A DNA stretch of 64,000 bases from a virus (IMGVR_UViG_3300049988_000118:1-64000), one strand, 5' to 3'; counted from the first letter of the stretch, positions 3,320-40,538 are shown. Notes: generated from the sequence alone by a model not told the origin. Numbers and translations: made by a program.

Positions 3320-3327
3320 GGCGGCAT

Positions 3328-20621: not shown

Positions 20622-22506
20622 CCGCACCGTCGCCTTAGCGCTCCGCAAGGTCCGTCCCCCGCCCCGCCTGCCCCTGTCGCAATGGATCGAGGCCGGCAAG
20701 AAGAAGGGCCTGTGCCTGCCGGAGGGACTGGTCGCCGACCCCGGCCCCGTCCGTCTCTGGGCGTTCCAGCGAGAGATTGCCGACGCCATCGGCGATCCGA
20801 CCATCCCGCGGGTGACCGTCAAGAAATGCGTCCGCGTCGGCTACACCACCATCCTGGTCGGTGCGATTGCGGGCCACGTCGTCAACGAGCCGGCGCCGAT
20901 CATGGTGCTGCTGCCCACCGACGACAGCTGCCGCGACTTCGTGGTGTCCGACCTCGAGCCGATCTTCGATTCGAGCGCGGTCGTTGCCGGCATCCTCGCG
21001 ACAGATGCGGACGAGACCGGCCGCAACACGATGATGTACCGCCGCTTCCCCGGCGGCTCGCTCAAGATCAAGGCTGCCCGGTCGCCGCGCAACCTTCGGG
21101 CTCACACGGTCCGCGTCCTGCTGATCGACGAAGAGGATGCGATCGAGGTCACGGCGGAGGGCGACGCCCTCACGCTGGCGATCAACCGGACGCTGACCTT
21201 CTCCAACCGCAAGATCGTCCGCGGCTCGACCCCGAAGGACGAAGACACCTCGACGATCTGCCGGGAGTACGATGCCAGCGACCGCCGGATCTATGAGATC
21301 CAGTGCGTCGAATGCGAGAAGTTCGCCGAGCCGAAATGGTCCCACATGGAGTGGGACAAGGAGAAGGACGCCCAGGGTCGGACGATCCGCCATCTGACCG
21401 AGACCGCGAAGTGGGCCTGCCCGAACTGTGGGGTGATGATCCCGGAGCGGCGCAAGGCCGAGATGGTCACGAAGGGCCGATGGCGCGCAACCCGTCCGGA
21501 GGTGAAGGGCCACGCTGGCTTCGCCCTGTCGGCTCTGATCTCGCCTCACGTCAACGCGTCCTGGTCGGAATTGGCGGCCGAGTACGTGGCGGCCTCCGGT
21601 CAGCCGGATCTGCTGCGCACCTTCCACAACACGAAGCTGGGCGAGGGCTGGTCCGAGAGCGTCGACCAGACCACCGCCGATGCGCTGGCCGACCGGGTCG
21701 AGGCCTTCGGTCTCAACATTGAGGTGCCGGACCCGAACGCGCCGGGCGGCAAGCGGATCCTGACAATTCCCGAGGCGGTCCTGCTCATAACCGCCGGCGT
21801 CGACGTCCAGCCGGACCGCCTCGAAATCTCGATCTACGGCTGGGACCGCGATGGCGTCGCCTATGCGCTCGGCCACTTCGTCCTCTGGGGCAACACGCTG
21901 GAGGGTTTTGTCTGGCGCGAGCTCGACGAGTTGCTGCTCCAGCGCTGGGTTCACCCGTTCAGCGGCAAGATCGGCATCGAAGTTACCTGCGTCGATTCCG
22001 GCGACGGCGGCACGACGGAGGCGGTCTACGGATTCTGCTGGCCAAAGCTGAAGCGCGGAGTCCTGCCAATCAAGGGCATGGGCGGACGCCGGGCGATCAT
22101 CGAAGCGTCCAAGGGCACGGTCTCGGGCGGCGCGCTCGGCGGTAAGGGCCGGCTTTGGATCGTTGGCGTCGACGAGGTGAAGCAGATCCTCCTAACCAAG
22201 TTCTCCCGGTATCCGGATCAGGTCCGGTTCTCGGAAAGCCTGCCGCTGTCGTGGTTCTCGCAGCTGACGTCCGAGCGTCGCATCGTAAAGCGCGTAGGTG
22301 GCCGACCGGTGCGGAAGTTCGAGCGGCTGAAGGGTGAGGCCGCCGAAGCGCTTGACGCCACTGTCTACGCTTTCGCCGCCCGCTACGTCCTGCCGCCGAT
22401 CGATTTTGATGCACGCGAGAAGCGCCTTCGTGATCCTAGCTTTGCGCCGCTCGCGCCGACTGCGCCGCCACGTGACGTGCGTCGATCTAAGTACATGGAG
22501 CGCTGA
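20605..22506 (+). CDS. terL: Terminase large subunit, lambda GpA family
   Basis: VTVKKCVRVGYT, LIDEED, RGSTPK, CVEC..CPNC, TAGVDVQPDRLE. Confidence 0.95.
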   Translation: MTTLLDRTVALALRKVRPPPRLPLSQWIEAGKKKGLCLPEGLVADPGPVRLWAFQREIADAIGDPTIPRVTVKKCVRVGYTTILVGAIAGHVVNEPAPIMVLLPTDDSCRDFVVSDLEPIFDSSAVVAGILATDADETGRNTMMYRRFPGGSLKIKAARSPRNLRAHTVRVLLIDEEDAIEVTAEGDALTLAINRTLTFSNRKIVRGSTPKDEDTSTICREYDASDRRIYEIQCVECEKFAEPKWSHMEWDKEKDAQGRTIRHLTETAKWACPNCGVMIPERRKAEMVTKGRWRATRPEVKGHAGFALSALISPHVNASWSELAAEYVAASGQPDLLRTFHNTKLGEGWSESVDQTTADALADRVEAFGLNIEVPDPNAPGGKRILTIPEAVLLITAGVDVQPDRLEISIYGWDRDGVAYALGHFVLWGNTLEGFVWRELDELLLQRWVHPFSGKIGIEVTCVDSGDGGTTEAVYGFCWPKLKRGVLPIKGMGGRRAIIEASKGTVSGGALGGKGRLWIVGVDEVKQILLTKFSRYPDQVRFSESLPLSWFSQLTSERRIVKRVGGRPVRKFERLKGEAAEALDATVYAFAARYVLPPIDFDAREKRLRDPSFAPLAPTAPPRDVRRSKYMER

Positions 22507-22763: not shown

Positions 22764-23931
22764 TGGGCCTTCTCAGCCGGATGTTCGGCGGCGCCAAGCG
22801 AGGTGCCGCGCGCGCCTTCTTCGCCCCAGGCTTCGGCTACGAGGGGGCACGCTTTTCGCGCCGGCTTCGCAGCTGGCTGCCGGAGCGCGCCAGCATCAAC
22901 GCGCTGCAGGCGCAGGGCGGCGAGCTTCTCCGCGCCCGCGCCCGCCAGCTGGTGCGCGACAACGCCCTGGCCGCGTCCGCGATCGACACGTGGGTCGGCT
23001 CCGTCGTGGGCGACGGCATCACGCCGTCTCCGACGATCGACGACAAGGCCCTGAAGACGGCCATCAAGGAGGCGTGGCTACGCTGGACCGACGAGGCCGA
23101 TGCCGACGGCCTGACGGATTTCTACGGCCTGCAGGCCCTCGTCGCCCGGTCGATGTTCACCGGTGGCGAGTGCTTCGTCCGGTTTCGGCCTCGCCGGATC
23201 GAGGACGGGTTCAGCGTTCCGCTGCAGCTTCAGATCTACGAGGCCGAGCAGCTGCCGCTGTCCTTCAACGTGCAGCGCTCGGACATCGGCAACGAGATTC
23301 GACACGGCATCGAGTTCGACCGGATCGGCCGGCGCCTCGCCTACCACTTCCTGAAGGTCCGGCCCGGCGACGGCGCCTATGCCTACGGCCTGGAGAATGG
23401 CGATCGCGTGCGCGTGGCGGCTTCCGAGGTCATGCACATCTACCGCCCCCTGGAGGCTGGACAGATCCGAGGGCAGACGCAGCTCGCCGCCGCGATGGTG
23501 CGGATGCACCTGCTCGACAGCTACGATGACGCCGAGCTCGACCGGAAGCGCGTCGCTGCGATGTTCGCAGGCTTCATCAAGAAGAACGCCATCGGCGACC
23601 CGCTCCCGGTCCCGGCCGGGTCCGACGCCTTCGGCGGTTTCGGTGGCGTGGGGGATCAGCCGCCTCCGATGGAGATCGAGCAGACCGTCGCCGACATGGA
23701 ACCGGGCACGATGAACGTGCTCAACCCCGGCGAGGAGATCACGTTCTCGAACCCGGCCGACGTCGGCGGCTCCTACGAAGCCTTCATGTATCGGAACCTG
23801 CTCGCCATCGCGGCGGGGTGTGGCGTTCCCTACGCGGCCATGACCGGCGACCCGAGCAAGGGCAACTTCTCGTCCCAGCGCAGCATCGAGCTCGAATACA
23901 AGCGCCGGGTCTCGCAGTTCCAACATCAGAC
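22763..23931 (+). pseudogene. Lambda-family portal protein, 5' part (interrupted by the satellite)
   Basis: LRARARQLVRDNALA, GECFVR, HGIEFD, QIRG, GNFSSQR motifs; the frame ends at a premature TAA (23957-23959) inside the insert. Confidence 0.95.
23922..23931 (+). repeat. attL core AACATCAGAC
   Basis: Direct repeat with 41812-41821 exactly at the portal breakpoint. Confidence 0.92.
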
Positions 23932-23967
23932 TATGTGCTTTGGGCTAAGCCCTTCGTAAATAACGAG

Positions 23968-23993
23968 AAAGCCGCTTTCGGGCGGCTTTTTCT
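23968..23993 (+). terminator. Rho-independent terminator just inside attL
   Basis: AAAGCCGC-TTTCGG-GCGGCTTT followed by TTCT. Confidence 0.75.
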
Positions 23994-24061
23994 GTGGGCG
24001 CGCGGGTGGCCTGAGAAGTCTGCCTAAGTCGTTGAAGTCCCATGAGGACCGGCGGCGCCAC

Positions 24062-24102
24062 GCGACATGCGCGCGACATTCGATGCGACAACGAACGCGA
24101 CA
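24062..24102 (+). promoter_or_regulatory. Four GCGACA repeats (candidate integrase arm or Xis sites)
   Basis: Copies at 24062, 24073, 24085 and 24097; the same hexamer occurs at 41722 and 41744 near attR. Confidence 0.55.
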
Positions 24103-24116
24103 AAATCGGAGGGCCT

Positions 24117-24329
24117 ATGTCCATGCACCCTGAGCAGGATTTGCTCTACGGCGTCCCTGCCATTGCGACTTTCCTCGGCATCCGGCCACGTCAGGCCAAG
24201 CACCGAGTTGCAACGGGCGAGATCCCCTCGTTCCGCATTGGGGAATCCATCTGCGCTCGCCGCTCAACTCTGACGGCGTGGCTTGCCGAGCGCGAGGCCG
24301 AGGCCCAGCGGAGCCGGTCCAATGCCTGA
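24117..24329 (+). CDS. AlpA/excisionase-like HTH protein
   Basis: LLYGVPAIATFLGIRPRQAKHRVATGEIPSFRIG...LTAWL; first gene inside attL. Confidence 0.8.
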   Translation: MSMHPEQDLLYGVPAIATFLGIRPRQAKHRVATGEIPSFRIGESICARRSTLTAWLAEREAEAQRSRSNA

Positions 24330-24645
24330 CATCGCCAACACCAGCCTGTCCCCGGTCACGGCCAACCCGACCGCCCACCGCAACACTGATGTCGCGCGCT
24401 TCGTCTGCCAGATCGGCGGCATCCGTCTCACGGGTGTCCGGCTGATGCGGATGCCCAACGGCGGCCACTTTGCCCAGCCGCAGTTGCGAACGAAGGGCAG
24501 GGGCACCCCGTCCGTCGGTACGACGATCACCGACCCGAACCTCATGAGCGCCATCACCTACGCGGCGCTCGCCCGCCTCTCCACGACGGACACCGACACG
24601 GCCGACGAAGGCCACAGGCACCGTGCCGTCCGCCGCCGGACTTAA
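24322..24645 (+). CDS. Hypothetical protein, weakly SpoVG-like
   Basis: GIRLTGVRLMRMPNGGHFAQP resembles the SpoVG beta strands. Confidence 0.45.
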   Translation: MPDIANTSLSPVTANPTAHRNTDVARFVCQIGGIRLTGVRLMRMPNGGHFAQPQLRTKGRGTPSVGTTITDPNLMSAITYAALARLSTTDTDTADEGHRHRAVRRRT

Positions 24646-24934
24646 CCCCGACCGCCGAGCCGATCTCGCCGACGAGATCGCCGACCTCCGGCACCGGCTG
24701 GCCTGCATCGAGGCCGAACTAGGCTTAGGCTCGCCAGGATTGGCCCAGGACGGGCGAGACCCGTTCGCCGAGGGCCATCTCACCTTGCAGCGAGCCGCGG
24801 GCGCCTGGGGCGTCACCGACGAGGCGGCGCGGAAGAGGGCGCTTCGTCTCGCATCGCTGGGGATGGCCGAGCGGCGCCGGCCCGGCGGCTGGCGGATCTC
24901 GACAGCCGGTGTACGGTTCTATCTCGGAGGGTGA
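24623..24934 (+). CDS. Hypothetical HTH protein
   Basis: LTLQRAAGAWGVTDEAARKRA HTH-like segment. Confidence 0.55.
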   Translation: MPSAAGLNPDRRADLADEIADLRHRLACIEAELGLGSPGLAQDGRDPFAEGHLTLQRAAGAWGVTDEAARKRALRLASLGMAERRRPGGWRISTAGVRFYLGG

Positions 24935-24937
24935 CCC

Positions 24938-25444
24938 ATGCCGGACTATTCAGCGGAGATCGGCCGGGTGCTGGCCGAGCGCGACGGCGTGGATCCGCAC
25001 GGGGACATCGCCGTGATGACCCGGGCGCTGATGAAGCGATTCCCCGGCGTCACCACCGAGATGATCTTGCGCGGTTGGGAGATCGCACGGGAGATCATCG
25101 CCACCGACGCCAGGATGGCACCGAGCGTCCGGAAGGTGCCGGTGGTGTTCGGGGAGCCGACCTTGGCTTGGCGTTGCACGGAGCTGGATCGGCTGTGGCT
25201 GAGCGCCAACGGCCGCGCCTACTTCATCCGCCCCGCGCTTGAAAACGAGACCTGGACCCTCGGAAAAAGCCTCCCCGCCGGCATGACCGCTCTTGCAATC
25301 GTCCGGGGCACCGATGGGTCGACGATCGCCTTCGCGTGCCGCGACCCCAGCGCGCTGACCGAAGCCTCGGACGATGCCCTTGCCGGCGTGTTCGATGACG
25401 AGATCGACGCGGCCGTCGAGCGGACCGCGCGCGGGCCGGAATGA
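24938..25444 (+). CDS. Hypothetical protein
   Basis: 168-aa ORF with GGAGG RBS. Confidence 0.6.
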   Translation: MPDYSAEIGRVLAERDGVDPHGDIAVMTRALMKRFPGVTTEMILRGWEIAREIIATDARMAPSVRKVPVVFGEPTLAWRCTELDRLWLSANGRAYFIRPALENETWTLGKSLPAGMTALAIVRGTDGSTIAFACRDPSALTEASDDALAGVFDDEIDAAVERTARGPE

Positions 25445-25557
25445 TGGCTCGCGCACGTCAGCGGGCAGGAGAATGGCCCGCCGGAGCTGGCGATAGGTTT
25501 TAGCCCCGGCAGGTAGCGGGTGCGGGGGAAAGCACTCTTGCGGTGATTCCGAGACAG

Positions 25558-25992
25558 CTAGACGGCCGTACCGTCGAACCACGCCAGGACGCGTCCTTCC
25601 AGCAACCCGCGGAAGAGTTCGTAATCACTTGAGGCATATTTCGGCCCGCGACCGGAGGATCTTCCGTTGATCCATGGGTCTTCAGTGCCAATACTGTTTT
25701 CCCACAATCCAAATGCGAAGGCGGTCTGCTTGCAATTTGGGTCGGTCAACGTAACCGTTACGGTAATGCAGCCGCTTACGCCCTCGGCGCGGGCACTCGT
25801 ATATTTCAGATTGCTCGTCTCTGTCGGGTCGCTCGCCGAGATAGCATCAGCCATAGCATTCAGATCATTGAAGATAAAATGATACTTCTGCATTATATGA
25901 GCTTCGAGGCCGGCGCGAGCGACTGGCTCGAATCTGTTAATGTACCGCGCAATACTTGTTCGAAACTCTGAGTAATCCCGCTCGTTAGCCAT
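25558..25992 (-). CDS. Hypothetical cargo protein (low GC)
   Basis: Antisense, AT-richer than its flanks; AAGGAG RBS before MANER. Confidence 0.6.
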   Translation of the reverse strand: MANERDYSEFRTSIARYINRFEPVARAGLEAHIMQKYHFIFNDLNAMADAISASDPTETSNLKYTSARAEGVSGCITVTVTLTDPNCKQTAFAFGLWENSIGTEDPWINGRSSGRGPKYASSDYELFRGLLEGRVLAWFDGTAV

Positions 25993-26058
25993 ACTCACTC
26001 CTTCGGCGCCGGCACCCATACCGCGCTCTGCTTCCCATTCATATCGGAGCATCTCAGC

Positions 26059-26457
26059 ATGCCGAAGTCGAGACGCCGCCCGCAAGCGGCCGATTCCGCG
26101 CGCCTGCCCGTCGTCCCCGAGGACTTCGAGGCGGTGACTGAGGCGGATCGCCGGTTCTTCCTACGGTATCCGCAGCGGTCCTATCGGGTTCGGCATACAA
26201 GCCGGGCAGAGATAGACCAGGGCGCACGCGCCGGCAGTGCGTTCGAGGCGCCTTACGCCAAGTTCCGCTGGTTCACCGCGATCCGACAGGTGGCGCCGGG
26301 GTGTCGGCTGCGTGTGTATCTCCAGGCGCCCGCGCTGTGCGAGACGGACATACCGGAAGCACTGGCGGCCGATATCTACCATCGGTTCGAGGGGCAAAGC
26401 GCTCGCGACACGACAATTCTTATGATGGATGCCCTGAGAAAGGCGGGCGCCCTATGA
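26059..26457 (+). CDS. Hypothetical protein upstream of satellite primase
   Basis: 132-aa ORF, ATGA-coupled to the primase. Confidence 0.6.
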   Translation: MPKSRRRPQAADSARLPVVPEDFEAVTEADRRFFLRYPQRSYRVRHTSRAEIDQGARAGSAFEAPYAKFRWFTAIRQVAPGCRLRVYLQAPALCETDIPEALAADIYHRFEGQSARDTTILMMDALRKAGAL

Positions 26458-28751
26458 CGACCGCCGCCGCGGGTGAGCGCCCGCCGAAACCCGCCTATCA
26501 GCCCTTCACCGGCCTGCCGGACTTGCCGGCGCTGTGCGAGATGCGCGCCCGGCCTCAGTGGCTTGCCTGGGACTACGTGTGGCGCCCGGAAAAGGCGAAG
26601 TGGGACAAGCCCCCAATGAACGCCCGGACGGGCGGGGCCGGCTCGTCAACCGACGCCTCGACGTGGTCCACCTATGACCAGGCCGCGGCGCGTGCCTCTC
26701 GTGAGGGGCTGCCAGGCGTCGGCTACGTCCTGTCGCCGGAGGTCGAGGACAGCGGTGTCGACCTCGACAAGTGCCGCGATCCCGAGACGGGTATACTTCA
26801 GGCATGGGCGCAGGTGGCCGTCGATTTCGCCGAGACCTACACCGAGGTGTCGCCGTCCGGTCGCGGGCTGCGCTTCTTCGTCAAGGGGTTAGTCGACGGT
26901 CGCAAGATCGATGCGGCCCAAGTGGAGATCTACACCAAGGGCCGATACCTGACCGTCACCGGGCAGCATATCCCTGGCACGCCCACGGAGATTCGGGAGG
27001 CGCCCCGGCTCATCGCCTACCTTCAGGAGCGCGCCGACCAGTTCCGAGAGGTCGAGCGTGCCGCCGCTGATCGCGCCCGAGAGAACGAGCGCAAGAAGGC
27101 CGAGAAGCATGCCGCCCGCGAGCCCCGCCCTGAGCCGGGCCCGACAGTCAGCGAGCGGGCCTCGGCGAGCGCTCGGCAGCGTGGTCCGCGCGAGGGCGGC
27201 GACTTCTGGCGAACCGTCAACGACCGCGCCCTTGCGAACCTTGGCGCATGGGTCCCGAGCGTGTTCCCCGGCGCCCGTTGGCAGGCTGGCACAGGCGCCT
27301 ACCGCGTTGAGCAAAGCGCGCTTGGCGAGGGCTACGAGGAAGACCTGTCCCTGCACCCGGACGGCATTCGGGACTTTGGCAGCGGTGACATGGGAGACTC
27401 GCGCGACGGCGCGCGGACGCCGATCGACGTGGTGGAAGCCTACCTGCCGGCGAGCGACGCCGCGGCGGCGGCCATGTGGCTGTGCGATCGGCTCGGCATC
27501 CGGCCCGAGGACATCGGGTGGCGTGGCGGGCGTAACGAGGGTGCGGAGCGCCCGCGGTACGAGGGGCCCCAATCCGATCCGGGCCCCACCGCCGAGTCGC
27601 CGCCGGCATTCCGGGCGCGTCCGTTCGTGTGGAAGGACCCGCACACCCTGCCGATGCGCGAATGGCTTCTCGGCCGGCACCTGATCCGAAAATACACGAG
27701 CGCCACCGTCTCGCCGGGTGGCCTGGGCAAGTCGTCCATCATCATCGTGGACGCGCTGGCCCTCGTGACGGGTCGCAACCTCATCGGACACCAGCCGCAT
27801 GGACGTCACCGGGCGATGATCTGGAACGGCGAAGACCCGATGGACGAATTGCAGAAGCGCATCACGGCGGCCTGCCTCTATTTCGAGATCGACCGGACCG
27901 AGATCGAGGGGCGCTTGTTCGTCAACTCCGGACGCGACGACCCGATCACGGTGGCGAGAATGCACAGGGGTGACGTGGTGATTGCCGTGCCGGTGGTGGA
28001 CGCTCTTAAGGCGACCATCTTGGCGAACGAGATCGACGTCGTGTTCGTGGACCCGTTCGTGTCCTGCCATGAGGTGACGGAGAACGACAACAACGCCATT
28101 GATCGTGTGGCGAAGCTGTGGGGCCGGATCGCAGGCGAAACGAATTGCAGCATCGAGCTCGTCCACCATTCGCGGAAAACCGGCGGCGCCGAGATCACCG
28201 TCGAGGACGCGCGCGGCGCCGTGGCTTTGCTCGCCGCGGTTCGCTCGGCCCGGACCCTCAACGGCATGCAAAGGGACGAGGCTGAGAAGTGGGGTATTAC
28301 GGATCGCGGGCTGTATTTCCGAGTGGACAACGGCAAGGCAAATCTCGCCCCGCCGCCGTCTGAAGGCTCGGCGTGGTTCAAGAAGCAATCCGTTTCCCTC
28401 GGCAACGGCGGCAGCGTTGGGAGCATCGTGCTCGACGGTGACAGCGTTGGCGTGGTGGCAGCGTGGGAGCCGCCGAACCCAATGGATGGCGTGTCAGTCG
28501 ATGATCTGAGAAAAGCTCAGGCAGCGACAAGGGAAGGCCGCTGGCGCGAGAACTCACAGGCTCGCGACTGGATCGGCAAGCCGATCGCCTACGCCCTCAG
28601 GCTCGACGCAGACAACAAGGCCGACCGCGCCCGCATCAAAGGGATGCTCGCCGTCTGGATGAAGACTGGCATGTTCGTGGCCGTCACCGGCAAGGACGAC
28701 AAGGCGATGGACCGGACCTTCATTGAGGTTGGCGAGAGCGCAGTCGACTGA
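26454..28751 (+). CDS. Satellite primase-polymerase fused to AAA_25 (RepA/DnaB-like) helicase
   Basis: AEP motifs (DLDKC, EVSPSGRGLR, YLTVTG); Walker A SPGGLGKS, VFVDP, LVHHSRK. Confidence 0.88.
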   Translation: MTTAAAGERPPKPAYQPFTGLPDLPALCEMRARPQWLAWDYVWRPEKAKWDKPPMNARTGGAGSSTDASTWSTYDQAAARASREGLPGVGYVLSPEVEDSGVDLDKCRDPETGILQAWAQVAVDFAETYTEVSPSGRGLRFFVKGLVDGRKIDAAQVEIYTKGRYLTVTGQHIPGTPTEIREAPRLIAYLQERADQFREVERAAADRARENERKKAEKHAAREPRPEPGPTVSERASASARQRGPREGGDFWRTVNDRALANLGAWVPSVFPGARWQAGTGAYRVEQSALGEGYEEDLSLHPDGIRDFGSGDMGDSRDGARTPIDVVEAYLPASDAAAAAMWLCDRLGIRPEDIGWRGGRNEGAERPRYEGPQSDPGPTAESPPAFRARPFVWKDPHTLPMREWLLGRHLIRKYTSATVSPGGLGKSSIIIVDALALVTGRNLIGHQPHGRHRAMIWNGEDPMDELQKRITAACLYFEIDRTEIEGRLFVNSGRDDPITVARMHRGDVVIAVPVVDALKATILANEIDVVFVDPFVSCHEVTENDNNAIDRVAKLWGRIAGETNCSIELVHHSRKTGGAEITVEDARGAVALLAAVRSARTLNGMQRDEAEKWGITDRGLYFRVDNGKANLAPPPSEGSAWFKKQSVSLGNGGSVGSIVLDGDSVGVVAAWEPPNPMDGVSVDDLRKAQAATREGRWRENSQARDWIGKPIAYALRLDADNKADRARIKGMLAVWMKTGMFVAVTGKDDKAMDRTFIEVGESAVD

Positions 28752-28753
28752 GC

Positions 28754-28879
28754 TTCCACACCCGAGGTTCGGGCCTTCGCGCGTCCACACCCCACCCCAC
28801 ACCCCTATAGGGGTGGTGGTGTGGAATGGAGTTTCCACACTTCCACACCATTCCACACCACGCCTCGCAAGGTGTGGGA
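28754..28879. other. Putative satellite replication origin (TTCCACAC iterons + 14-bp palindrome)
   Basis: About 8 CCACAC/GTGTGG copies and the perfect palindrome ACCCCTATAGGGGT (28801-28814) directly after the primase stop. Confidence 0.65.
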
Positions 28880-28996
28880 GGCGACGACACGGCATGCTGT
28901 CACGATGGCCCTAATGCACGTGGTCGGGGACGATGCGGCTTGATGCATCCCGGGCGACCTGCGGTGTCACCCGGGATACCTGGTTCGTGAGCGGCG

Positions 28997-29365
28997 CTAG
29001 ACCCGATTGAACTCGCGTGCGTGCAAGTTGCTACCCGCGCGCACCATCGTCACGTTGAGCCGCTTGAAGCACGCCAGGAAGTCGGCGAGCGACAGGGGAA
29101 CGTCGACAGCGACCAGATCGATCGGCCCGTCCTGAGGCATGGCCTTCGTGGCCTCGTCGTAGCTGTTGCCCAGGGCATAGTGGGCCGTCAGCTTAGTGGA
29201 CCCGTCTACCTCGCTCTGCCAGAGGTCGAAGGCCACGAGGAAGCGGCCGGCAGGGGCAAGCCCGCGGGCAGCGAGCGTCGCCCCCAAGTCATCGACGGCG
29301 GCATTGTCGGCCGCGGCCGAGCCCTCCCAATCGCCGTACTGCGTCTCAGCCTGCAAGCGCTCCAT
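28997..29365 (-). CDS. Hypothetical cargo protein
   Basis: Antisense ORF with GGAG RBS; acidic, globular-looking. Confidence 0.55.
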   Translation of the reverse strand: MERLQAETQYGDWEGSAAADNAAVDDLGATLAARGLAPAGRFLVAFDLWQSEVDGSTKLTAHYALGNSYDEATKAMPQDGPIDLVAVDVPLSLADFLACFKRLNVTMVRAGSNLHAREFNRV

Positions 29366-29453
29366 GACCATGCTCCGTACAACCGTGGGCGGACGGCATA
29401 CGACCAAGCGGAGGCCGGGCCTAGGGGCCAAGCGGCGATCGTCACGGAGACCC

Positions 29454-29574
29454 GCACGTTCCTCGGTGGGTAGGCCCTCCGACCCCGCCCCGCATGCTGC
29501 GCCTCACTACCGCAGCGCACAATGGGTCCTCCGGAGACACCCCACCCCTCTGCGGGCAGAGTTGCTCCCGACTT
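29454..29574 (+). repeat. Satellite copy of the prophage cos region (121 bp, 100% identical to 19844-19964)
   Basis: Base-by-base identity at offset 9610; GGGTCCT at 29524-29530, dyad at 29548-29561; upstream of the satellite terS. Confidence 0.9.
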
Positions 29575-29656
29575 TCGGCTCTCTGCAAGTTTGCCAAAAA
29601 TAGGGGGGGCCGCTTCTTTTCGGTCCCTCGAAGCCTCGCTCCCGATGGAGAAACCG

Positions 29657-30175
29657 ATGAACGAGACCGCTTCGAACGCCGAGATGATGGAGCTGTTCGG
29701 GGTCTCAGACCGGACCGTCGCGAAGCACGCCGCCAGCGGGATATTCGTGCGTGTTGGCCGCGGCCAGTACGACGTGAAGGCCTCGATCCGCACCTACGCT
29801 GAGCACCTCCGCAGCGCCGCATCCGGGCGGCCCAGCACCAACGAAGAGCTGCGAGCCGAGAAGATTCGACTGACCGCCGCCCAAGCTGACCGCGCAGAGA
29901 TGGACCGGGACGCCGAGGCCGAGGTGATGGTCAACGTGAAGGAATTCGACGACGCGTGGGGCCATGAAATCGTCAAGCTTCGGCAGGGGTTTCTCGGCTT
30001 GGCAAATAAGATCGCGGAGGCTCACCCCCACTTCACGCGCCACGAGATCCACACCATCGACGAAGTGATCCGCGCGATGATGGAGCGGGTTGCCGACGAT
30101 GCCGATACACGCCTGGAAATCGCTCAGGCCAAAGAAGACAAGGGCGGAAAGTCGCGGCGCCGGTCCCGCCGCTGA
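29657..30175 (+). CDS. terS: Satellite terminase small subunit (Nu1-like)
   Basis: wHTH (MMELFGVSDRTVAKHAASG...GQYD), ELRAEKIRLTAAQADRAEM coil; C-terminus aligns with prophage TerS. Confidence 0.88.
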   Translation: MNETASNAEMMELFGVSDRTVAKHAASGIFVRVGRGQYDVKASIRTYAEHLRSAASGRPSTNEELRAEKIRLTAAQADRAEMDRDAEAEVMVNVKEFDDAWGHEIVKLRQGFLGLANKIAEAHPHFTRHEIHTIDEVIRAMMERVADDADTRLEIAQAKEDKGGKSRRRSRR

Positions 30176-30276
30176 ACGCGTAATTCGATTTAATGGTTGG
30201 TTTTGGTTGGTTTTCCCCGGTCCAAAGTTGGTTTTCTCTCGTTGAATTAGGCCCTCGTCCGCCGGACACTTCCGGC

Positions 30277-30624
30277 ATGACAACCGCCAGCTTCCCCCGC
30301 TTCAGCACAACGCTGGACCACGAGACGGCCCGCGCCGTCACCCTCGCCGCCGCCGAACGGATGCAGAGTCGCGCCGACTTCATTCGTGACGCGGTGGCCC
30401 ACGAACTGAGCGTCCGACAGGCCGCCGCCGACGCCGTGCGATCCGAGGTCGAGCGCCAGGGAGCCGCCGCCCGCCGCCTCACCGCCGCACTGGATCGGGG
30501 GCCGGGTGCAACCTCCCGTCTCACCGCCTCGCGCGTCGCCGCGCTCGCCCGGCCGGCCGCGCACACCATCCCCAACATCTCCACCCTCGACGCGGCCGAA
30601 GCCGCCGGAAAGGCATGCCCATGA
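30277..30624 (+). CDS. Ribbon-helix-helix (CopG-like) protein
   Basis: RFSTTLDHETARAVTLAAAERMQSRADFIRDAV fits the RHH pattern. Confidence 0.6.
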   Translation: MTTASFPRFSTTLDHETARAVTLAAAERMQSRADFIRDAVAHELSVRQAAADAVRSEVERQGAAARRLTAALDRGPGATSRLTASRVAALARPAAHTIPNISTLDAAEAAGKACP

Positions 30625-31706
30625 AATCGCCGACGAAGCTGCTCAAGGCCACCGCCACGGCGTTCGGCCTTGCCCGTAAGGCCACCGACGCCGAGGTCAT
30701 CGAGGCTGCAATCGCGGAGGCACGCACGGCCATTGCGGAGGGCGAGCGCGACGGGGCCGAGGCCCAAGCGCGCTACGACGAATCCCTGCTCGCCGATGAC
30801 GGCGACCCGGCCTTGATGCTCAACGCGATCCAGGCCGCCAAGATCAAGCGGGACCGCGGCGAGGCCCAGGTGGCCACCCTCACCGTGCGCCTGAACGATG
30901 TGCGGGAGGCCAGCGAGCAAGAACGCCGCGGCGCGATCTATCGGGATGCGGAGGCAAAAGCCGAAGCCGCCCGCGTTGCCCTGGTTCAGGAATACCCCGC
31001 CATCGCCCGACAGATGCATGGGCTACTCCGGCTTCTGGCCGAAGCCGAGATCAGGGTAGCGCAGGCGAACGCGGACCTACCGCACGGGGCCGCGCCCATC
31101 GCTTCGCCCGAGTGGCAGGTTCGGTATCCCGGGGCCAACCTGCCGCCGCTGCCGGCCCCAACGATGGTGAAGCTTTGGGCGCCCATGGGTGGAAGCGAGC
31201 CCGTGCCGGAGGAAGACCAGCAACGGGTTCGCCCGATGCCCGGTCGAGCGGAGTGGGTCGGCGCCCTCCGGCGTGATGACGGCTCCACGCTGGAGTGTCA
31301 TCGCCGTACCTTTCGGAAGTCGCTGGAATACGAGAAGCCCCACGGGGATTGGGGCACCAATCTGGCCGGGTCCGTGTGCCTGCCGGCCCTGTATCCCTTC
31401 ACCCCGCCCGTGTGGCCGCAGAACCTCATCAACGGCAAGACATTCGACCGATCTGCTGATGTTGCGCTGTCGACCTTGGATGATGTTGAGCCCCTGAGCG
31501 CGGCAGTCTGGCGACGAGCGGAGGCGATTTTGAAGGTCGTCACCCGCTTCCGGGAGGAGGGCCGCCCCCTCAACGTAGTGGACGACGGAGCACCGCGCGT
31601 ACCGCGCCACCAGCCTGTCACGGATCTCGCCCTTCGCCACCAGCCTGTCACGGATCTCGCCCTTTACGACGAGGATGACGGCGAAGCGGAGGGCGAGGCA
31701 GCATGA
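30621..31706 (+). CDS. Helical coiled-coil protein of unknown function
   Basis: Ala/Glu-rich heptads in the N-terminal half; coupled to its neighbours. Confidence 0.65.
   Translation: MKSPTKLLKATATAFGLARKATDAEVIEAAIAEARTAIAEGERDGAEAQARYDESLLADDGDPALMLNAIQAAKIKRDRGEAQVATLTVRLNDVREASEQERRGAIYRDAEAKAEAARVALVQEYPAIARQMHGLLRLLAEAEIRVAQANADLPHGAAPIASPEWQVRYPGANLPPLPAPTMVKLWAPMGGSEPVPEEDQQRVRPMPGRAEWVGALRRDDGSTLECHRRTFRKSLEYEKPHGDWGTNLAGSVCLPALYPFTPPVWPQNLINGKTFDRSADVALSTLDDVEPLSAAVWRRAEAILKVVTRFREEGRPLNVVDDGAPRVPRHQPVTDLALRHQPVTDLALYDEDDGEAEGEAA
31605..31664 (+). repeat. In-frame 30-bp tandem duplication (RHQPVTDLAL x2)
   Basis: CGCCACCAGCCTGTCACGGATCTCGCCCTT twice. Confidence 0.9.
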
Positions 31707-31966
31707 TGCGCGTCGTGCCGAAAGTCGATGGCGCCGAAGACGAACGGCGGGCGGCCAAGCGCCAACGGCTCACCGAAACCCTGGCCCTGCCGGAAGCGCA
31801 GGGCAGGGGCAACCTCCTCCCCTTCGCCCTGGCGTGCCGTTTCGATCTTCCCATGGCCCGCGTGAAGCAAGCCCTGGTCGACGCACCCGAGATGACCGAC
31901 CCGAACGAAGTTGCCGAGTGGGCGGAGGCATACCCCGTCCGCTCAAAACTGGAGATCGTGAAATGA
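31703..31966 (+). CDS. Hypothetical protein
   Basis: 87-aa coupled ORF. Confidence 0.55.
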   Translation: MMRVVPKVDGAEDERRAAKRQRLTETLALPEAQGRGNLLPFALACRFDLPMARVKQALVDAPEMTDPNEVAEWAEAYPVRSKLEIVK

Positions 31967-33219
31967 ACGACTACGATGGCCGCCGCCTGATCTGCGAAGG
32001 TGCCTTGGTCCTCTATGGTGACGTGGGCGAGGCCGGATGGGCGGACGTCGATGGCTTCACCGCCTCCGATGTGCTGTTCGCGCTCGCGGAGATCGGCGCA
32101 GACCGTGACGTGACGGTGCGGATCAACTCTGGCGGCGGCAATGCCTTCGAGGGCCTCGCCATCCACGCGATCCTCTCGGCGCACCGCGGCAAGATCACCA
32201 CCGTAGTCGAGGGCATCGCCGCGTCCGCCGCCTCCATCATCGCGATGGCGGGGAAGGACCGGATCGTCGCGCCCGGGTCGCTCATGATGATCCACGACCC
32301 GTCGGGCCTGACGGTCGGCACGGCGGACGATCACGACGACACCGCCGCCATGCTGCGCACCCTGTCGGATGCGCTTGCGACCGTCTACGCGACCGCCACC
32401 GGCCGAGCGAAGGCCGTCATCCTGGAGGAGATGAAGGCCGAGACGTGGCTCGACGCCGACGAATCCCTTGCCCGGCGGTACGCCACGGCGATCGGAACCG
32501 CCCCCGCCTCGACCGCCATGCTCCCGTTTCCGTTCGGAGCCTATGCGAAGGCACCCGCCCACCTCGTCGCCCTTGCGGAAACGAAGGGGTGGAGCGCCCG
32601 CCAGTTCACCGCCTCGCACGCCCTGGGCAAGTCGCGTTCCGAGCGCCACGCCGCTGCACCGCGCTCCTTCGATAAGGCGGCCACCGCGTCGGCGCCTGAC
32701 GCCATCGCCCAGACGTGCGCTCTTGCCGGGTGCCCGGAGAGGGCCGCCGAGTTCATTGCGGCTGGGGCGTCGTCGGCCGACGTAGCGAAGCAGCTGCTAG
32801 CGGAAGCGGTGACCGGCACGGCCACCCAGGGCGCGAGCCAGAACCGTCTGTCTCGCGCCGATTCGGCGTCGGTCGCGACCCTGTGTCTCGACGCGAGCAT
32901 TCCCGAGATGACGCCGACCATCCTCGCCCGAGCCACCACCGTGGATCAGGCCAAGGCGCTGATCCAGACCGGCACCGAAATGAAGGACGTCGTGACCCTG
33001 GCGCGCCGGCACTGCCCGAGCGTGCCCGAGGATTTGGCGGTCACAGCGTTCGCCGCCGGAAAGACGGTCAAGCAGGTCCGCGACGAGGCCGTGAACCTGA
33101 TGGCGGAAGAGGGCGACCGAACCGAAGTCCAGGGGAGCCGCCACCCCGCCGCGATCAATTCCGGCCCCGGGGCGGCGAAGCGGAACATGCTGGCCCAACT
33201 CGCGCGGGCCACCCGCTGA
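31963..33219 (+). CDS. Satellite ClpP-type head maturation protease fused to scaffold domain
   Basis: RINSGGG, GIAASAASIIAMAG (Ser), MIHDP (His), ETW; paralog of 42203..43411. Confidence 0.9.
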   Translation: MNDYDGRRLICEGALVLYGDVGEAGWADVDGFTASDVLFALAEIGADRDVTVRINSGGGNAFEGLAIHAILSAHRGKITTVVEGIAASAASIIAMAGKDRIVAPGSLMMIHDPSGLTVGTADDHDDTAAMLRTLSDALATVYATATGRAKAVILEEMKAETWLDADESLARRYATAIGTAPASTAMLPFPFGAYAKAPAHLVALAETKGWSARQFTASHALGKSRSERHAAAPRSFDKAATASAPDAIAQTCALAGCPERAAEFIAAGASSADVAKQLLAEAVTGTATQGASQNRLSRADSASVATLCLDASIPEMTPTILARATTVDQAKALIQTGTEMKDVVTLARRHCPSVPEDLAVTAFAAGKTVKQVRDEAVNLMAEEGDRTEVQGSRHPAAINSGPGAAKRNMLAQLARATR

Positions 33220-33410
33220 TGGCCCTGGCAACCTCCGCCCTCCGCGTCCGCATCGTGGACACCCCGTCGGCCGGCGCTCTCCTCGACCTCGCCGACCGCT
33301 TGCGCCGACTCGCCCCGTCGCCCCGCGATCCGGAGCGCTTCCACGTCGAGAAGTCCGAGATTGAGGGCGAACTGCGCCGGCTCGCCCTGCCGCCCGCCCG
33401 GAGATCCTAA
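33219..33410 (+). CDS. Small hypothetical protein
   Basis: TGATG overlap; 63 aa. Confidence 0.55.
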   Translation: MALATSALRVRIVDTPSAGALLDLADRLRRLAPSPRDPERFHVEKSEIEGELRRLALPPARRS

Positions 33411-33413
33411 ACA

Positions 33414-33851
33414 ATGCCCAAAAGCTCCACTCGGAAGCGCGCCCCTGCCGCGCGGTCCCCCGCCCCGGACCTCCCGCCGCCGCGCTTCGTCATGCCGGTG
33501 CCGGATCATACCGTTCCGCTGATCCACCCGGTCGAGTACGCCGGCCGAACCTTCGCCAGCATCACCCGTCGACGCCCGTCTAGCGCCGTGCTGGGCCGGT
33601 GGTTCGAGCAGTTCACCGAGGGCGCGGCGGTCCCGGGCGACACGAATCTCAACGTGCCGATTTTCGTCGACGAGGCCGGCGACCTCGTACCGGATGCGGT
33701 GCTCGGCTTTCTCGACGACGATGACCGGCAGGTCGTGTTCGAGGATGCTGACCGTTTTTTTCCCAAGCGGCTCGCGGTTGCCCTGGAAGCTCTGACGCAG
33801 GACTCAGCCCCTTCGTCTGGCGAACCTGCCGAGCCGACATCATCCGCTTGA
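33414..33851 (+). CDS. Satellite tail assembly chaperone (TAC)
   Basis: Aligns with prophage TAC (L..P.E..G......RR; PIF.D..G..PD.....LDDDD; F.P.R); lies directly before a TMP. Confidence 0.8.
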   Translation: MPKSSTRKRAPAARSPAPDLPPPRFVMPVPDHTVPLIHPVEYAGRTFASITRRRPSSAVLGRWFEQFTEGAAVPGDTNLNVPIFVDEAGDLVPDAVLGFLDDDDRQVVFEDADRFFPKRLAVALEALTQDSAPSSGEPAEPTSSA

Positions 33852-33943
33852 TAGGGGGCTCGCGGGCTGAGCTCGACGCCATGACCTGGGGCGAGTTCAC
33901 CCGCGAGTGGTTCGAAGCCAAACGCGTTTCTGAGGGCCGCTGA
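33755..33943 (+). other. -1 programmed frameshift (T TTT TTT) and gpE'/gpT-like extension of satellite TAC
   Basis: The -1 frame is open from the slippery site to TGA 33941-33943 and encodes RADIIRLIGGSRAELDAMTWGEFTREW. Confidence 0.8.
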
Positions 33944-33944
33944 G

Positions 33945-36635
33945 ATGTCGACACGCACCGCAACCCTGATCGCCAACTTGGTCGATCAGGTCTCAGGTCC
34001 GGCCAAGGGCATGGCCGGCGCCCTGAAAAGCACCGCATCCGCCCTCGATGCACTGAAGGCCAAGGCCGGCAAGATCGACGCCTTCAAGCAGGCGAGCAAG
34101 TCGCTGGACGACGCCGCGCAGAAGTTCAGGCTGGCGCAGCAGAACGTGCGCAAGATCAAGGCCGAGATGGAGGCCGGCGGCGACGGCGCCAAAAAGCTCG
34201 GGAGCGCGCTGAAGGGCGCCGAGCGCAACGCCGATGCGGCGCGGGCCGCGTTCAAGAATCAGGGGCAGGAGGTCCGCGCGTTGCGCACCGCCCTGGAGCA
34301 GGCCGGCGTGCCGCTCAACGCGCTCGCCGCGCACGAGCGCCAGTTGCAGACCCAGATCAACCACACCACCGAGGCGCTCAAGCGACGGAAGAAGGCGCTT
34401 GCGGATGTTGGCGCCGGGGCGCCGGCGAGCCGGATGGGGCCAGCCGCAGGCGGGCACGGGCCTCAAGCAGGGCGCGGGGGCGGTGGCACGGGCGCCGCCG
34501 GGAGCGCCGTAGTGGGCGCCGGCGTGGCGCGCTTCGGCGTGGCAGCGGCCGGAATCGGTGGGGGTGCCTACATCATCGGCGATCAGATCCGCCGGGCTGC
34601 GAAGTCGTCGATAGATTTCGAGCGCAGCATGATCGAGGTCGGCAAGGCCACCGACGCATCAGGGGCCGATCTCGAAAAATACTCCGAGGGCATCCTGGCG
34701 CTGGCCCGCGCCACCGGCAAGACGAAGGAAGACCTCGCCTCGATGCTCTCCTCGGCGGGCTTTGCCGGCCGCCCGAAGGAGGAGCTAATGAACTTCACCG
34801 AGTACGCGGCGAAAGCGACCGTGGCTTGGGGCACGAGCGCCGAAGACACCGGCCAGGCGTTGGCCGAGATCGGCAACATCTACGACGCGAATCAGAAGCG
34901 CATCGAGGAGATCGGCGACGCGATCAACACGATGGCGGACAGCTCGGCATCGAAGGAATCCGACCTACTCGACTTCATGCGTCGGGCGGGTGCCTCGTCG
35001 AAGCAGGCCGGCATCTCAGCCGAGCATATGCTGGCGTTCGGCGCCTCGATGAAGGAAGTGGGCGTCCGGACCGACGTGGCCGCCACCGGCTTCGAGGCAC
35101 TCCTGAACGTGATGAAGCTCGGCGAGGAGTTTTCGAAGAAAGCAGGCGAAGGTCTGAAGGATCTCGGCGTCAACTCCACCAAGATGCGCAAGGCGTTCGT
35201 CGCCAAGCCGGTCGAGACGATGCTTGGCCTGCTGGAAAAGATCAACAAGGTCGCGGACCCGCTCAAGAAAGCGGAGATTATGACCAACCTTTTTGGCAAG
35301 GAATATCAGGACGACATCGCCAAGATGCTCAACGCCTTGCCGAAGGTGAACAAGTACATCGGCATCATGAGCGATCAGGCGAAGATTGCCGCCGGTGGCG
35401 TCCGGTTCCAGTTCGGTCAGAACCTCGACAAGGACGTGTCGAAGATCGACCGGGCCACGCAATCCATCGACGTTCTCTACAAGCGCATCGGCGACCCGAT
35501 CAAGATCCAGATCGGCGGCATCTCCGAGCAGGTCAATACGCTCGTCGACAGCCTGGAAAAGGGCGACACGATCCTTCAGCGCCTGGTGAAGCGCCTCAAC
35601 GGCGGCGAAGCTGGCAAGCCGATCGAGCTGCCCGAAATGAATGGCGAAGGCGGCCTGGAAAAATGGTTCGAGGAAAAGCTGCCCTGGCTGAGCGGCAAGA
35701 AGTGGAACGACGAGGTCGACAAGCGGATCGGCAAGACCGGCGCTGACACGGACCGGATGAACCGCGAGGACGCCGACGGGCGGCGCGCCGCGGCCGAGCG
35801 GGAGGTGCTCGACCGCCCGGCCGACATCGAGACGAAGATCCAGCGCCAGCGCCGCGCACAGGATCAGGCCCGGCGGGAAGCGGTCGGGGCTACGGGGATG
35901 CGGCGCTCGCTGGCGGTGGAGCAGATCGGCAAGTCCGACGCCGAGGTGAAGCGCTTGGAGGGCGAGCTTGCCAAGGCTTGGGAGGCGATCGGAGCCCTTC
36001 GCGCTCAGCACAAGCGGGACAAGGGGGCGTTCAGCGTCGACGGTCCGGCTGCGAAGGACGTGGAGACCATCGGCCCGGGCCGCTTCGGGCTTGGCCTACA
36101 CGGCACGGACGTGCTGCCCTCGCGCCGGGTGCCGCTACCGCCGCCGCGACCCGCAGGGCTGACGCCCGGCGCAGAAATCACCATGCCGGAGATCAAGGTC
36201 GAGGTGGACACCTCCGGCTTCGATGAGGCCAGCCGCAAGGCCGATGAACTCGGTGCGCGGACCATCGCGCCGAAGGGCGACGGCGCCGGCTTGGCCCCCA
36301 TCGGGACAGCGGCCGACGAGGCCAAGGCGAAGCTCTCTGAAATCAATGCCACCACCGTCACACCGAAGGGAGATGCCGCAGGGCTCGCGCCGCTCGGGAC
36401 GGCCGCCGACGAAGCCAAGGCAAAGCTTTCGGCCCTCGCCGGGGTGAGCGTCGCGCCGACCGTCGACGCCTCATCCATCGCGGCGGCAGAAACCGCAGTA
36501 GATCGCCTCCTGGCGAAAATCGCCCGGGTCGGCCCAGCCCTGAAAGGCGCCAACGGGGCTGTTGCCTCGGGTGTCGTCCGTTCCGGCAACGTCGCCCAGC
36601 GCCTCCAGAACACTTTCACCGACAAGGGGATGTGA
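33945..36635 (+). CDS. Satellite tail tape measure protein (TP901-type core)
   Basis: AAKSSIDFERSMIEVGK...LALARATG core; N- and C-termini match the prophage TMP. Confidence 0.9.
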   Translation: MSTRTATLIANLVDQVSGPAKGMAGALKSTASALDALKAKAGKIDAFKQASKSLDDAAQKFRLAQQNVRKIKAEMEAGGDGAKKLGSALKGAERNADAARAAFKNQGQEVRALRTALEQAGVPLNALAAHERQLQTQINHTTEALKRRKKALADVGAGAPASRMGPAAGGHGPQAGRGGGGTGAAGSAVVGAGVARFGVAAAGIGGGAYIIGDQIRRAAKSSIDFERSMIEVGKATDASGADLEKYSEGILALARATGKTKEDLASMLSSAGFAGRPKEELMNFTEYAAKATVAWGTSAEDTGQALAEIGNIYDANQKRIEEIGDAINTMADSSASKESDLLDFMRRAGASSKQAGISAEHMLAFGASMKEVGVRTDVAATGFEALLNVMKLGEEFSKKAGEGLKDLGVNSTKMRKAFVAKPVETMLGLLEKINKVADPLKKAEIMTNLFGKEYQDDIAKMLNALPKVNKYIGIMSDQAKIAAGGVRFQFGQNLDKDVSKIDRATQSIDVLYKRIGDPIKIQIGGISEQVNTLVDSLEKGDTILQRLVKRLNGGEAGKPIELPEMNGEGGLEKWFEEKLPWLSGKKWNDEVDKRIGKTGADTDRMNREDADGRRAAAEREVLDRPADIETKIQRQRRAQDQARREAVGATGMRRSLAVEQIGKSDAEVKRLEGELAKAWEAIGALRAQHKRDKGAFSVDGPAAKDVETIGPGRFGLGLHGTDVLPSRRVPLPPPRPAGLTPGAEITMPEIKVEVDTSGFDEASRKADELGARTIAPKGDGAGLAPIGTAADEAKAKLSEINATTVTPKGDAAGLAPLGTAADEAKAKLSALAGVSVAPTVDASSIAAAETAVDRLLAKIARVGPALKGANGAVASGVVRSGNVAQRLQNTFTDKGM

Positions 36636-36693
36636 CGACGGCAGTCGGCCGCGCAGAGACGGTCAGTAAATGGCTTGTGACGATCTGGGCAGC

Positions 36694-37038
36694 CTACCGC
36701 GCGTCCACGATGCGACAGGACGCGGCGCCGAGAGTTTTCCCGTCCGCCTCGGCGATGCCGATGAAGTTCCGGCCTGTGACGGTAGCGCCCGGTTTGATGT
36801 TGCGGATAACCGAGGCCGCTTCACCCACGGGAGACCCGCCCGGACTTGCTACGGAGCAACTGACCTCGGCGACCTCCACCCGCGCCGAGCCGGCATTCCT
36901 CACCTGAATCACGGTCTCGACGGTCTCGCCGATGGCGCGCGGGCGTCCGGCCGTGACCGAGAGGTCATCCGCCATCCCCGCCGCGTGTGCGGCGTACGAT
37001 GACACGATCAGAGCGAGGGCGAGCAGGGCAGGGCGCAT
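36694..37038 (-). CDS. Secreted Ig-like hypothetical protein (FxLYD-like)
   Basis: Signal peptide MRPALLALALIVSSYAAHA; beta-rich with Cys pair. Confidence 0.6.
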   Translation of the reverse strand: MRPALLALALIVSSYAAHAAGMADDLSVTAGRPRAIGETVETVIQVRNAGSARVEVAEVSCSVASPGGSPVGEAASVIRNIKPGATVTGRNFIGIAEADGKTLGAASCRIVDAR

Positions 37039-37081
37039 GCCGGCAAGATAGCCGCCGGGGTGCAGTTGTCGAGACTAGCCC

Positions 37082-37234
37082 TCAACCGCGTACGGCATGC
37101 TGTTCACCCGCCGGGGCAGGCCGCTCGGCATGTGGATGCTTCCGGTTGAATCGGTACTTCAGCAGCGCGAAAAAACCGCCGCCTCCGACCACTGCCAAGC
37201 CGAGAGCGGACCATAGGAGCAGGGTAGGTGTCAC
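37082..37234 (-). CDS. Small single-TM protein (50 aa)
   Basis: GTG start overlapping the upstream GGAG; LLLWSALGLAVVGGGGFFALLKYR. Confidence 0.5.
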   Translation of the reverse strand: MTPTLLLWSALGLAVVGGGGFFALLKYRFNRKHPHAERPAPAGEQHAVRG

Positions 37235-37237
37235 GGA

Positions 37238-37609
37238 TCACTCCTCTGATTGCATCACAAGGAAATTTAGAACGTACGGGAAGATATGGAAGCCCAAAGA
37301 AATAACACACCATTGAACCGCGTTTCCGTCCAGAACCGCATCCGCGTCCCGAACGAACGGCACGATCGCCGCTGCCCCTAGAATGCCGGCCGCGAGAGTG
37401 TTGCAGAGCGCGTTGAAGTGCTTGAGGCACTCATTGATGCGCTTGGCGTCAAGCTTCCGCAATGCTGGGTTATCAGACGATGGCGGCGGTTTTCCTGAAC
37501 CAAAACTTGGAGAATTTATTTTTCGAGCCAGTGCCTCTGCTTCACCTTCAGCGAAGCTGTCAATCGATCGAAGGGGTGTTGTGCTTTTCTTAATGGCGCC
37601 AGTCATCAA
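37238..37609 (-). CDS. Two-TM membrane protein (cargo)
   Basis: Hydrophobic segments TLAAGILGAAAIVPFV and WCVISLGFHIFPYVLNFLV. Confidence 0.6.
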   Translation of the reverse strand: MMTGAIKKSTTPLRSIDSFAEGEAEALARKINSPSFGSGKPPPSSDNPALRKLDAKRINECLKHFNALCNTLAAGILGAAAIVPFVRDADAVLDGNAVQWCVISLGFHIFPYVLNFLVMQSEE

Positions 37610-40537: not shown

Positions 40538-40538
40538 G

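Follow-up and report, generated by a model that had tools for sequence, protein, structure and literature searches.

The stretch of DNA that we analysed (the window, 64,000 nt of a 73,988-nt virus record) holds a lambda-like phage and, inserted in its portal gene, a 17.9-kb element with the gene content of a satellite, which brings together a perfect duplicate of the helper's cut and termination site, a putative private recognition box and a small terminase (TerS) of the Nu1 type that is full length. We consider that these three parts on balance probably serve as one packaging module, by which the satellite would use the large terminase (TerL) of its helper. Satellites are known to secure packaging by site mimicry, by Rpp, or by a TerS of their own together with an inhibitor (10.1101/2024.04.22.590561), and some E. 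coli PICIs are said to encode a TerS, not characterised (PMC6092414). Since helper-embedded satellites, cos mimicry, Rpp and satellite TerS proteins are all published already, the locus is most likely a variant of known satellite strategies and not a new category. We found no published description, however, of a cos satellite that carries a full-length Nu1-type TerS and a private R3 beside a helper-identical cosQ/cosN.

The helper encodes a large terminase of the lambda gpA type (20605..22506, plus strand; Pfam GpA_ATPase, E 2.6e-73, and GpA_nuclease, E 3.4e-74), the only TerL in the examined parts of the record and at most 33% identical to the TerL of any cultured phage. Judged by its genes, the helper is a lambda-like phage of an uncultured high-GC lineage without a close cultured relative. 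Its lambda-family portal gene is split relative to intact relatives, and the N- and C-parts align to the intact portals of three related contigs (L002-L004). Between them lies the 17.9-kb element (23932..41821, plus strand), delimited by two copies of the core AACATCAGAC: attL at 23922..23931, inside the portal gene, and attR at 41812..41821, after which the portal C-terminus resumes in frame and runs to 42188, followed by genes for ClpP protease, gpD and gpE. The cores are clean 10-bp repeats, and their removal would restore the portal frame.

The element reads from an AlpA-like HTH gene through a primase-helicase, cos, terS, an RHH gene and a 363-aa coiled-coil protein to a ClpP protease-scaffold, TAC, tape measure, Rha/ANT and the integrase. 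Pfam and PHROG annotation of its ORFs revealed no TerL, portal or major capsid gene. It thus has the general marks of a satellite, which are integration and replication genes of its own, the absence of those three functions, and about one third of the helper's size (17.9 kb, against at least 56.1 kb in the remainder of the record), a ratio that would be typical of satellites. Its gene content and junctions make it a helper-embedded satellite as defined by Tommasini, Mageeney & Williams (10.1101/2022.07.18.500453; PMC10111431). In its integrase Pfam finds PF00589 only, and because of this restriction to the catalytic domain the enzyme may lie outside the P4-like HE-PICI integrase clade; the integrase of the related contig L007 has Arm-DNA-bind_3, and tblastn gave no similarity between the two. 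With three satellite units (53.7 kb), a head of the helper's size would be full; alternatively, the satellite's protease-scaffold paralogue might direct small heads. This gene (31963-33219) is 46% identical to that of the helper (42203-43411) over its full length (E 5e-94), with one DNA stretch at 78% identity, and is a candidate capsid-size redirector.

We compared the window with 17 related loci and with lambda. The helper-like phages compared were L001-L004, L014 and L017-L021 (the helper terS relatives being L001-L004, n=4, with six further viral contigs found by a degenerate pattern) and the satellite-like loci were L005, L007, L009, L023 and L024; L005 and L007 come from sample ERZ27253049, and L002, L003, L009 and L023 from JGI 3300022749. 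The satellite-type TerS has six relatives among 5.8 billion proteins. A scan of the viral contigs collection with its protein pattern found no relative, and a genome-contig scan found a single distant one (32% identity), in a complete phage within a Rhodobacteraceae MAG. L007, an independent metagenome contig, carries integrase, Toprim primase, AAA_25 helicase, cos and terS, then a 327-aa protein, ClpP, TAC and tape measure, again with no TerL, portal or capsid gene, and terL is absent downstream of satellite-type terS in 8/8 loci. Because L007 repeats the gene order, and because the satellite-type terS relatives with readable context have no terL behind them, the comparison favours a stable lineage of satellites over the random decay of prophages.

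We did consider that the element could be a decaying prophage fragment, its cos copy and terS being leftovers with no present role in packaging. It is true that its terS, protease-scaffold, TAC and tape measure have helper paralogues, but against this stand the same compact gene order in L007, clean att cores that would restore the portal frame, uninterrupted ORFs wherever satellite ORFs were examined, and a cos patch 100% identical to that of the helper, which indicates recent exchange. We therefore give this explanation very little credence.

Every satellite-type terS with enough sequence downstream is followed by a member of the family of the 363-aa protein (30615..31706, plus strand), with tblastn matches in L005, L007, L009 and L023. 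The protein has a long N-terminal helix and no family match in Pfam and PHROG searches. Its AF2 model (pLDDT 49.6) is confident only for helices at 20-150 and is too poor to interpret. This helical protein could be part of the packaging module. The 3' end of its gene contains an exact 30-bp tandem duplication (31605-31664) that encodes RHQPVTDLAL twice and looks recent, because the relatives are without it. In L005 the terS is followed by a 919-aa protein (10722-13481) of which only the N-terminus resembles the 363-aa protein and which has no Pfam match. L005 also has an S24 repressor, a Ros/MucR gene and a GapR gene, is without ClpP and tape-measure genes, and is, by its gene content, a different type of element using the same cos-terS module.

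As the initial annotation had reported, 29454-29574 and 19844-19964 are identical, forming an exact direct repeat of 121 bp (100% identity) in the 64-kb window; a gapless stretch of 153 nt around it is 92% identical between the two copies. An exact repeat of this length within 64 kb is far beyond chance, and it is not background homology, since the next-best DNA similarity between satellite and helper in the window reaches only 78%. On its left side the repeat begins within the ORF at 19030-19863 (plus strand), seven codons ahead of the stop, so that the last 20 nt of this helper gene (TFLGG-stop) are inside the duplicated segment; the gene was described earlier as gpZ-like, a fair label given its match to phrog_27 (tail completion/Neck1; E 1.8e-14). 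Both copies contain the heptamer GGGTCCT, at 19914-19920 in the helper and 29524-29530 in the satellite, and 17 nt after it the dyad CTCTGC-GG-GCAGAG, at 19938-19951 and 29548-29561 respectively, with the spacing first noted. Identity between the copies stops 13 nt past the dyad; the next ~28 nt are still ~60% alike and include a CTC.CTGCA element common to both. We saw no sigma-70-like promoter around the satellite cos, where the folding of the strand is not unusual either (z -0.65).

Several features of the relatives bear on the nature of this repeat. Upstream of terS, every related helper-like and satellite-like locus carries GGGTCCTCC, then 21-24 nt, then (T)GCGGGC, and among the helper-type relatives the sequence between and upstream of these two elements varies. 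The distant phage of the Rhodobacteraceae MAG has the cosQ variant GGGTCCC. The earlier statement that lambda cosQ is GGGTCCT proved correct: lambda reads GGGTCCT, 23 nt, and its left cohesive end GGGCGGCGACCT, and the window reads GGGTCCT, 23 nt, and GGGCAGAGTTGC, matching the fixed distance from cosQ to the cut in lambda-type cos sites. The helper copy is followed, as in a lambda-type cos region, by terS (20010-20621) and the gpA-type terL (20605-22506), and the satellite copy by a Nu1-type terS with no terL. The reading of the repeat as a cosQ/cosN core, in helper (19844..19964) and satellite (29454..29574) alike, is thus supported, because the motif and its spacing are conserved in the 17 related loci and match the geometry of lambda. 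Within it, the cosQ-like heptamers are those given above (GGGTCCTCC being invariant in related loci, and lambda having GGGTCCT 23 nt before its left end), and the putative 12-nt cohesive-end segments GGGCAGAGTTGC would fall at 19944..19955 and 29554..29565, all on the plus strand, with staggered nick positions taken from lambda's spacing only (cosQ + 23 nt). The earlier description needs a correction as to the dyad, which is not a conserved feature of cosN: the relatives differ in its left arm, and what they have in common is the block TGCGGGCAGAGWTGCTCCCGAYTT.

The map position of the gpZ-like gene deserves a comment. It is the gene next to cos on the upstream side, and the other tail genes stand at the opposite end of the map; this placement is conserved in L014 and L018-L021. 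If the genome is circular or concatemeric, this gene would come last among the late genes, just ahead of cos. As long as the satellite is not excised, one molecule carries both cos copies, as direct repeats with a spacing of 9,610 bp. A recombination event that joined the two copies would remove the helper terS and terL and the N-part of the portal along with the left third of the satellite, and an unexcised concatemer would present two cos sites in each unit to packaging.

The same comparison informs on the direction of transfer. The DNA between the stop codon of the Z-like gene and cosQ differs among helper-type phages, so the identity of the two copies upstream of cosQ is not explained by constraint. 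The copy includes the end of the Z-like gene, helper-type phages natively have the Z-like gene, cos and terS in this order (L014, L018-L021), and in the other satellite-type loci the sequence that precedes cosQ is unrelated; these three observations point to a recent movement of the cos patch from this helper, or a near-identical phage, into the satellite. The capture that had been proposed at the outset is in this way upheld, and the likely route would be recombination or gene conversion spanning about -100 to +21 around the putative cut. We rejected an assembly chimera at the repeat, because both copies have their native flanks on both sides: Z-like gene, cos, terS and terL around the helper copy, as in L014 and L018-L021, and primase-helicase, cos and terS around the satellite copy, as in L007. 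The joints between satellite and helper are at the 10-bp att core and not at the cos repeat. In a scan of the viral contigs collection, neither the 49-nt cos core nor the repaired portal junction had an exact match, and viral-contig and genome-contig scans found no second helper-satellite pair with matched cos.

Beyond the identical core the two sites part company, as the initial annotation had noticed for the regions equivalent to cosB. In lambda and N15, R3 is located at bp 48-60/65 (PMC9026076), and a type-specific box occupies the corresponding position, bp 47-60 from the putative left end, in the loci compared here. The helper's candidate R3-equivalent box is AGGTGAAC (19991..19998, plus strand; bp 48-55 from the putative left end), with GGTGAAC in 7/7 helper-type loci, and that of the satellite is ATAGGGGGGGCCGC (29600..29613, plus strand; bp 47-60), with AGGGGG(G) at the same place in 7/7 satellite-type loci. 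The box sorts perfectly with the type of the TerS N-domain across the 17 loci, linkage being a confound: TAGGTGAAC (GGTGAAC) in 7/7 loci with the helper-type N-domain, GAGGTTCGC (GGTTCGC) in 3/3 loci of a second N-domain type (L003, L014, L020), and A(C/T)AGGGGGG in 7/7 satellite-type loci, that of the window at 29600-29613 included. The two cosN variants, A (GGGCAGAGWTGC) and B (GGGC..TAGAGG), were both found with each TerS type. Because the box stays with the TerS type and both cosN variants occur with each, recombination has evidently separated cosN from the box. The box could be a TerS-recognition site that covaries with the TerS N-domain, and the physical linkage of neighbouring DNA may explain part of the association.

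These data also speak to an alternative, which is cos mimicry alone. Here the satellite would be packaged by the helper's TerS and TerL, as are P4, SaPIbov5 and the HE-PICI 11capE, and its own TerS would be mainly an interference factor that competes for TerL, or would be dispensable. Satellites without terS are indeed packaged from a helper-like cos (PMC6092414, PMC10111431), and the identical cosQ and cosN followed by ~28 nt that are ~60% alike, with the shared CTC.CTGCA, would suit such a mode. However, the box at the R3 position differs completely between satellite and helper (TAGGTGAACGAG vs ATAGGGGGGGCC) and is conserved among satellite-type loci above the level of the adjacent coding sequence, and the satellite has an intact terS, with conserved counterparts in 7 relatives. 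We regard mimicry alone as distinctly unlikely.

We then examined the two small terminases. That of the helper (20010..20621, plus strand; 203 aa) is of the Nu1 type by phrog_57 (E 3e-20) and by the family alignment. The satellite protein, also of the Nu1 type (phrog_57, E 3.4e-25), has 172 aa if translated from ATG 29657 (29657..30175, plus strand) or 176 aa from 29645. The latter start had been assumed originally; ATG 29657 is probably the correct one, because it has GGAG six nt upstream and matches the starts of the relatives. The TerS family profile retrieved 6hn7_B, a lambda-type TerS, with E 0.003, and weakly Nu1 (1j9i). In the AF2 model of the satellite protein (pLDDT 84) an N-terminal winged HTH, built as strand-helix-helix-wing-helix over residues 8-60, leads into a long helix, and the two helices at the C-terminus are modelled with confidence. 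Foldseek placed 6hn7_B, 7lxs and 1j9i (TerS and Xis-type winged HTH) as best matches with prob 0.77-0.99 but E 0.14-0.36. As modelled, the satellite TerS has a Nu1-type fold with an N-terminal winged HTH.

The C-termini of the two proteins had been said to align and their winged HTH domains to diverge, and both statements hold. By BLASTP only the C-terminal 50 aa align (42% identity, E 6e-11), a similarity that is real but modest, and the N-termini give no significant alignment; in the family alignment the satellite and helper proteins share 27% (N), 30% (middle) and 38% (C) identity. The conserved C-terminal block, W105-R143, has an invariant W, T-x-HE and R (T-x-HE...D...R). The C-domain of the satellite TerS is 36-43% identical to helper-type C-domains, which among themselves share 47-98%, and constitutes a third C-type, with 64-72% identity among the satellite TerS proteins of other samples. 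The tails are opposite in charge, basic in the satellite (KSRRRSRR) and acidic in the helper (DDDDAA).

The satellite TerS could also act in another way, by analogy with the Rpp proteins of the E. coli cos PICIs. It would then not contact TerL itself but form mixed oligomers with the helper TerS, whose C-terminus would supply TerL, blocking recognition of the helper cosB and redirecting the complex to the satellite box, as RppA and RppC do. The Rpps are winged-HTH proteins thought to derive from TerS, with the same cos-rpp layout and a helper-type cosQ/cosN beside a foreign cosB (PMC6739421, PMC9026076); moreover, the block W105-R143 common to both proteins could serve for oligomerisation instead of for contact with TerL, and the satellite C-domain is of a distinct type with a basic tail. 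Yet Rpps have 135-153 aa and are without the C-terminal 30-40 residues of TerS (PMC9026076), whereas the satellite TerS, at 172-176 aa, is full length and aligns through the whole T-x-HE...D...R block. Further, 6hn7 contains both a TerS and an Rpp chain, and the TerS family profile retrieved the former and not the latter at E <= 1. We thus consider an Rpp-like mode unlikely.

Our preferred reading, that the module recruits the helper TerL through the satellite's own TerS, would work as follows. The cosQ-cosN core, copied or gene-converted from the resident helper, could be cut and terminated by the helper's gpA-type TerL. A private R3-type recognition box would lie ~47-60 bp to the right of the cut, and the full-length Nu1-type TerS would present a winged-HTH N-domain matched to that box and, at its C-terminus, a block with homology to the part of the helper TerS that would confer TerL specificity. 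Once the satellite had left the portal gene and replicated, its TerS would bind the satellite box and bring in the helper TerL for cos-to-cos packaging of satellite DNA, and the helper's own TerS would not be needed. Three features of the satellite C-domain count against this reading: its identity to helper-type C-domains of only 38-43%, its membership in the third C-type, and its basic tail.

Support for the assignment of TerL specificity to the C-domain comes from the relatives. Among ten complete phages, the identity of the TerS C-domain correlates with that of TerL with a Spearman coefficient of 0.83 for TerL 61-250 and 0.71 for TerL 1-60, and that of the N-domain with 0.41 and 0.53, respectively. 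The C-domain thus appears to co-segregate with the TerL type far better than the N-domain among helper-type phages, and linkage may contribute. This agrees with the hybrids of lambda and 21, in which TerL specificity is carried by the C-half of TerS (PMC9026076). Two pairs, L003 vs L014 and L004 vs the helper of the window, are clean 2x2 TerS recombinants. Across the helper-type phages (L001-L004, L014, L017-L019) TerL falls into two groups, with which two types of TerS C-domain co-segregate, and the TerS N-domain types and the cosN variants assort independently of these; the cos-terS-terL region of these phages has a mosaic structure, with three or more breakpoints.

A satellite TerS from another contig, P0010 (L009:316-768), is chimeric. 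In the N and middle domains it shares 88-98% identity with P0009, and its C-domain is helper-type, with 64-68% identity to helper-type TerS and 45% to P0009. By these comparisons P0010 is a natural TerS domain swap. The JGI sample that yielded L009 (3300022749) is also the source of the helper-like contigs L002 and L003.

One may tentatively go further and see in these elements a previously undescribed, non-enterobacterial satellite family with a "plug-and-play" module, in which cosQ-cosN is gene-converted from the resident helper, the private R3 box and the winged HTH are kept, and the TerS C-domain is swappable, as in P0010. We hold this wider reading to be possible but doubtful. If true, one satellite lineage could switch among helpers of different TerL types without using the helper TerS, and the family could exemplify an ancestral state, with TerS in full length, that gave rise to the Rpp-type redirectors.

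Among known systems, the locus is close in layout to the Rpp cos PICIs of E. coli (EcCICFT073 cos1-rppA; PMC6739421, PMC9026076), which likewise have a helper-type cosQ/cosN followed by a foreign cosB/R3, a Nu1-like winged-HTH gene in the terS position, no TerL, and a helper with a lambda-type cos. Rpp, lacking the TerL-binding end, works only as a heterocomplex with the helper TerS, whereas the satellite TerS has a C-terminal block homologous to that of the helper; in addition, the Rpp cos PICIs belong to Enterobacterales and the satellite of the window to a high-GC uncultured phage group. With the HE-PICIs (PMC10111431; 10.1101/2022.07.18.500453) it shares AlpA, the primase, a Bro/Rha zone and captured late genes. 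The founder 11capE has a 258-bp cos region 90% identical to that of its helper, compared with 100% over 121 bp here, and is without terS (PMC10111431), whereas here a private box and a private terS follow cos; in place of a capsid gene, the late zone here has protease-scaffold, TAC and tape measure. Pac-type SaPIs also have their own TerS, which pairs with the helper TerL for selective packaging, a pairing that we infer for the present satellite. They differ in using headful packaging and a separate inhibitor, Ppi, of which no homologue was identified in the satellite, whereas here packaging would be cos-type with a cut site copied from the helper. P4 and SaPIbov5, finally, carry the helper's cos and no large terminase subunit, as here, but depend wholly on the terminase holoenzyme of the helper and do not encode a terS.

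If it works as we propose, the locus is a natural experiment on the division of cos specificity between TerL (cosQ/cosN) and TerS (R3), and it would show that the N- and C-domains of TerS are exchanged as modules. It also extends helper-embedded satellites to an uncultured high-GC phage lineage.

Some further observations concern the rest of the record. No helper integrase and no terminal repeat were found. Both ends (1-4900, and 64001-73988, L013) are still phage-like in content, with genes for a dCMP deaminase, an HTH repressor-like protein, a DnaA-C-domain protein, a GH108 lysin and a UmuC-like polymerase. Inside the satellite, GC drops to 0.52 at 37000-38400, and a minus-strand ORF of the satellite at 37606-38175 has no PHROG match. 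GC falls to 0.44 at 14615-16372, a stretch with two minus-strand ORFs between the helper primase and the genes downstream of it, which looks like an inserted cassette.
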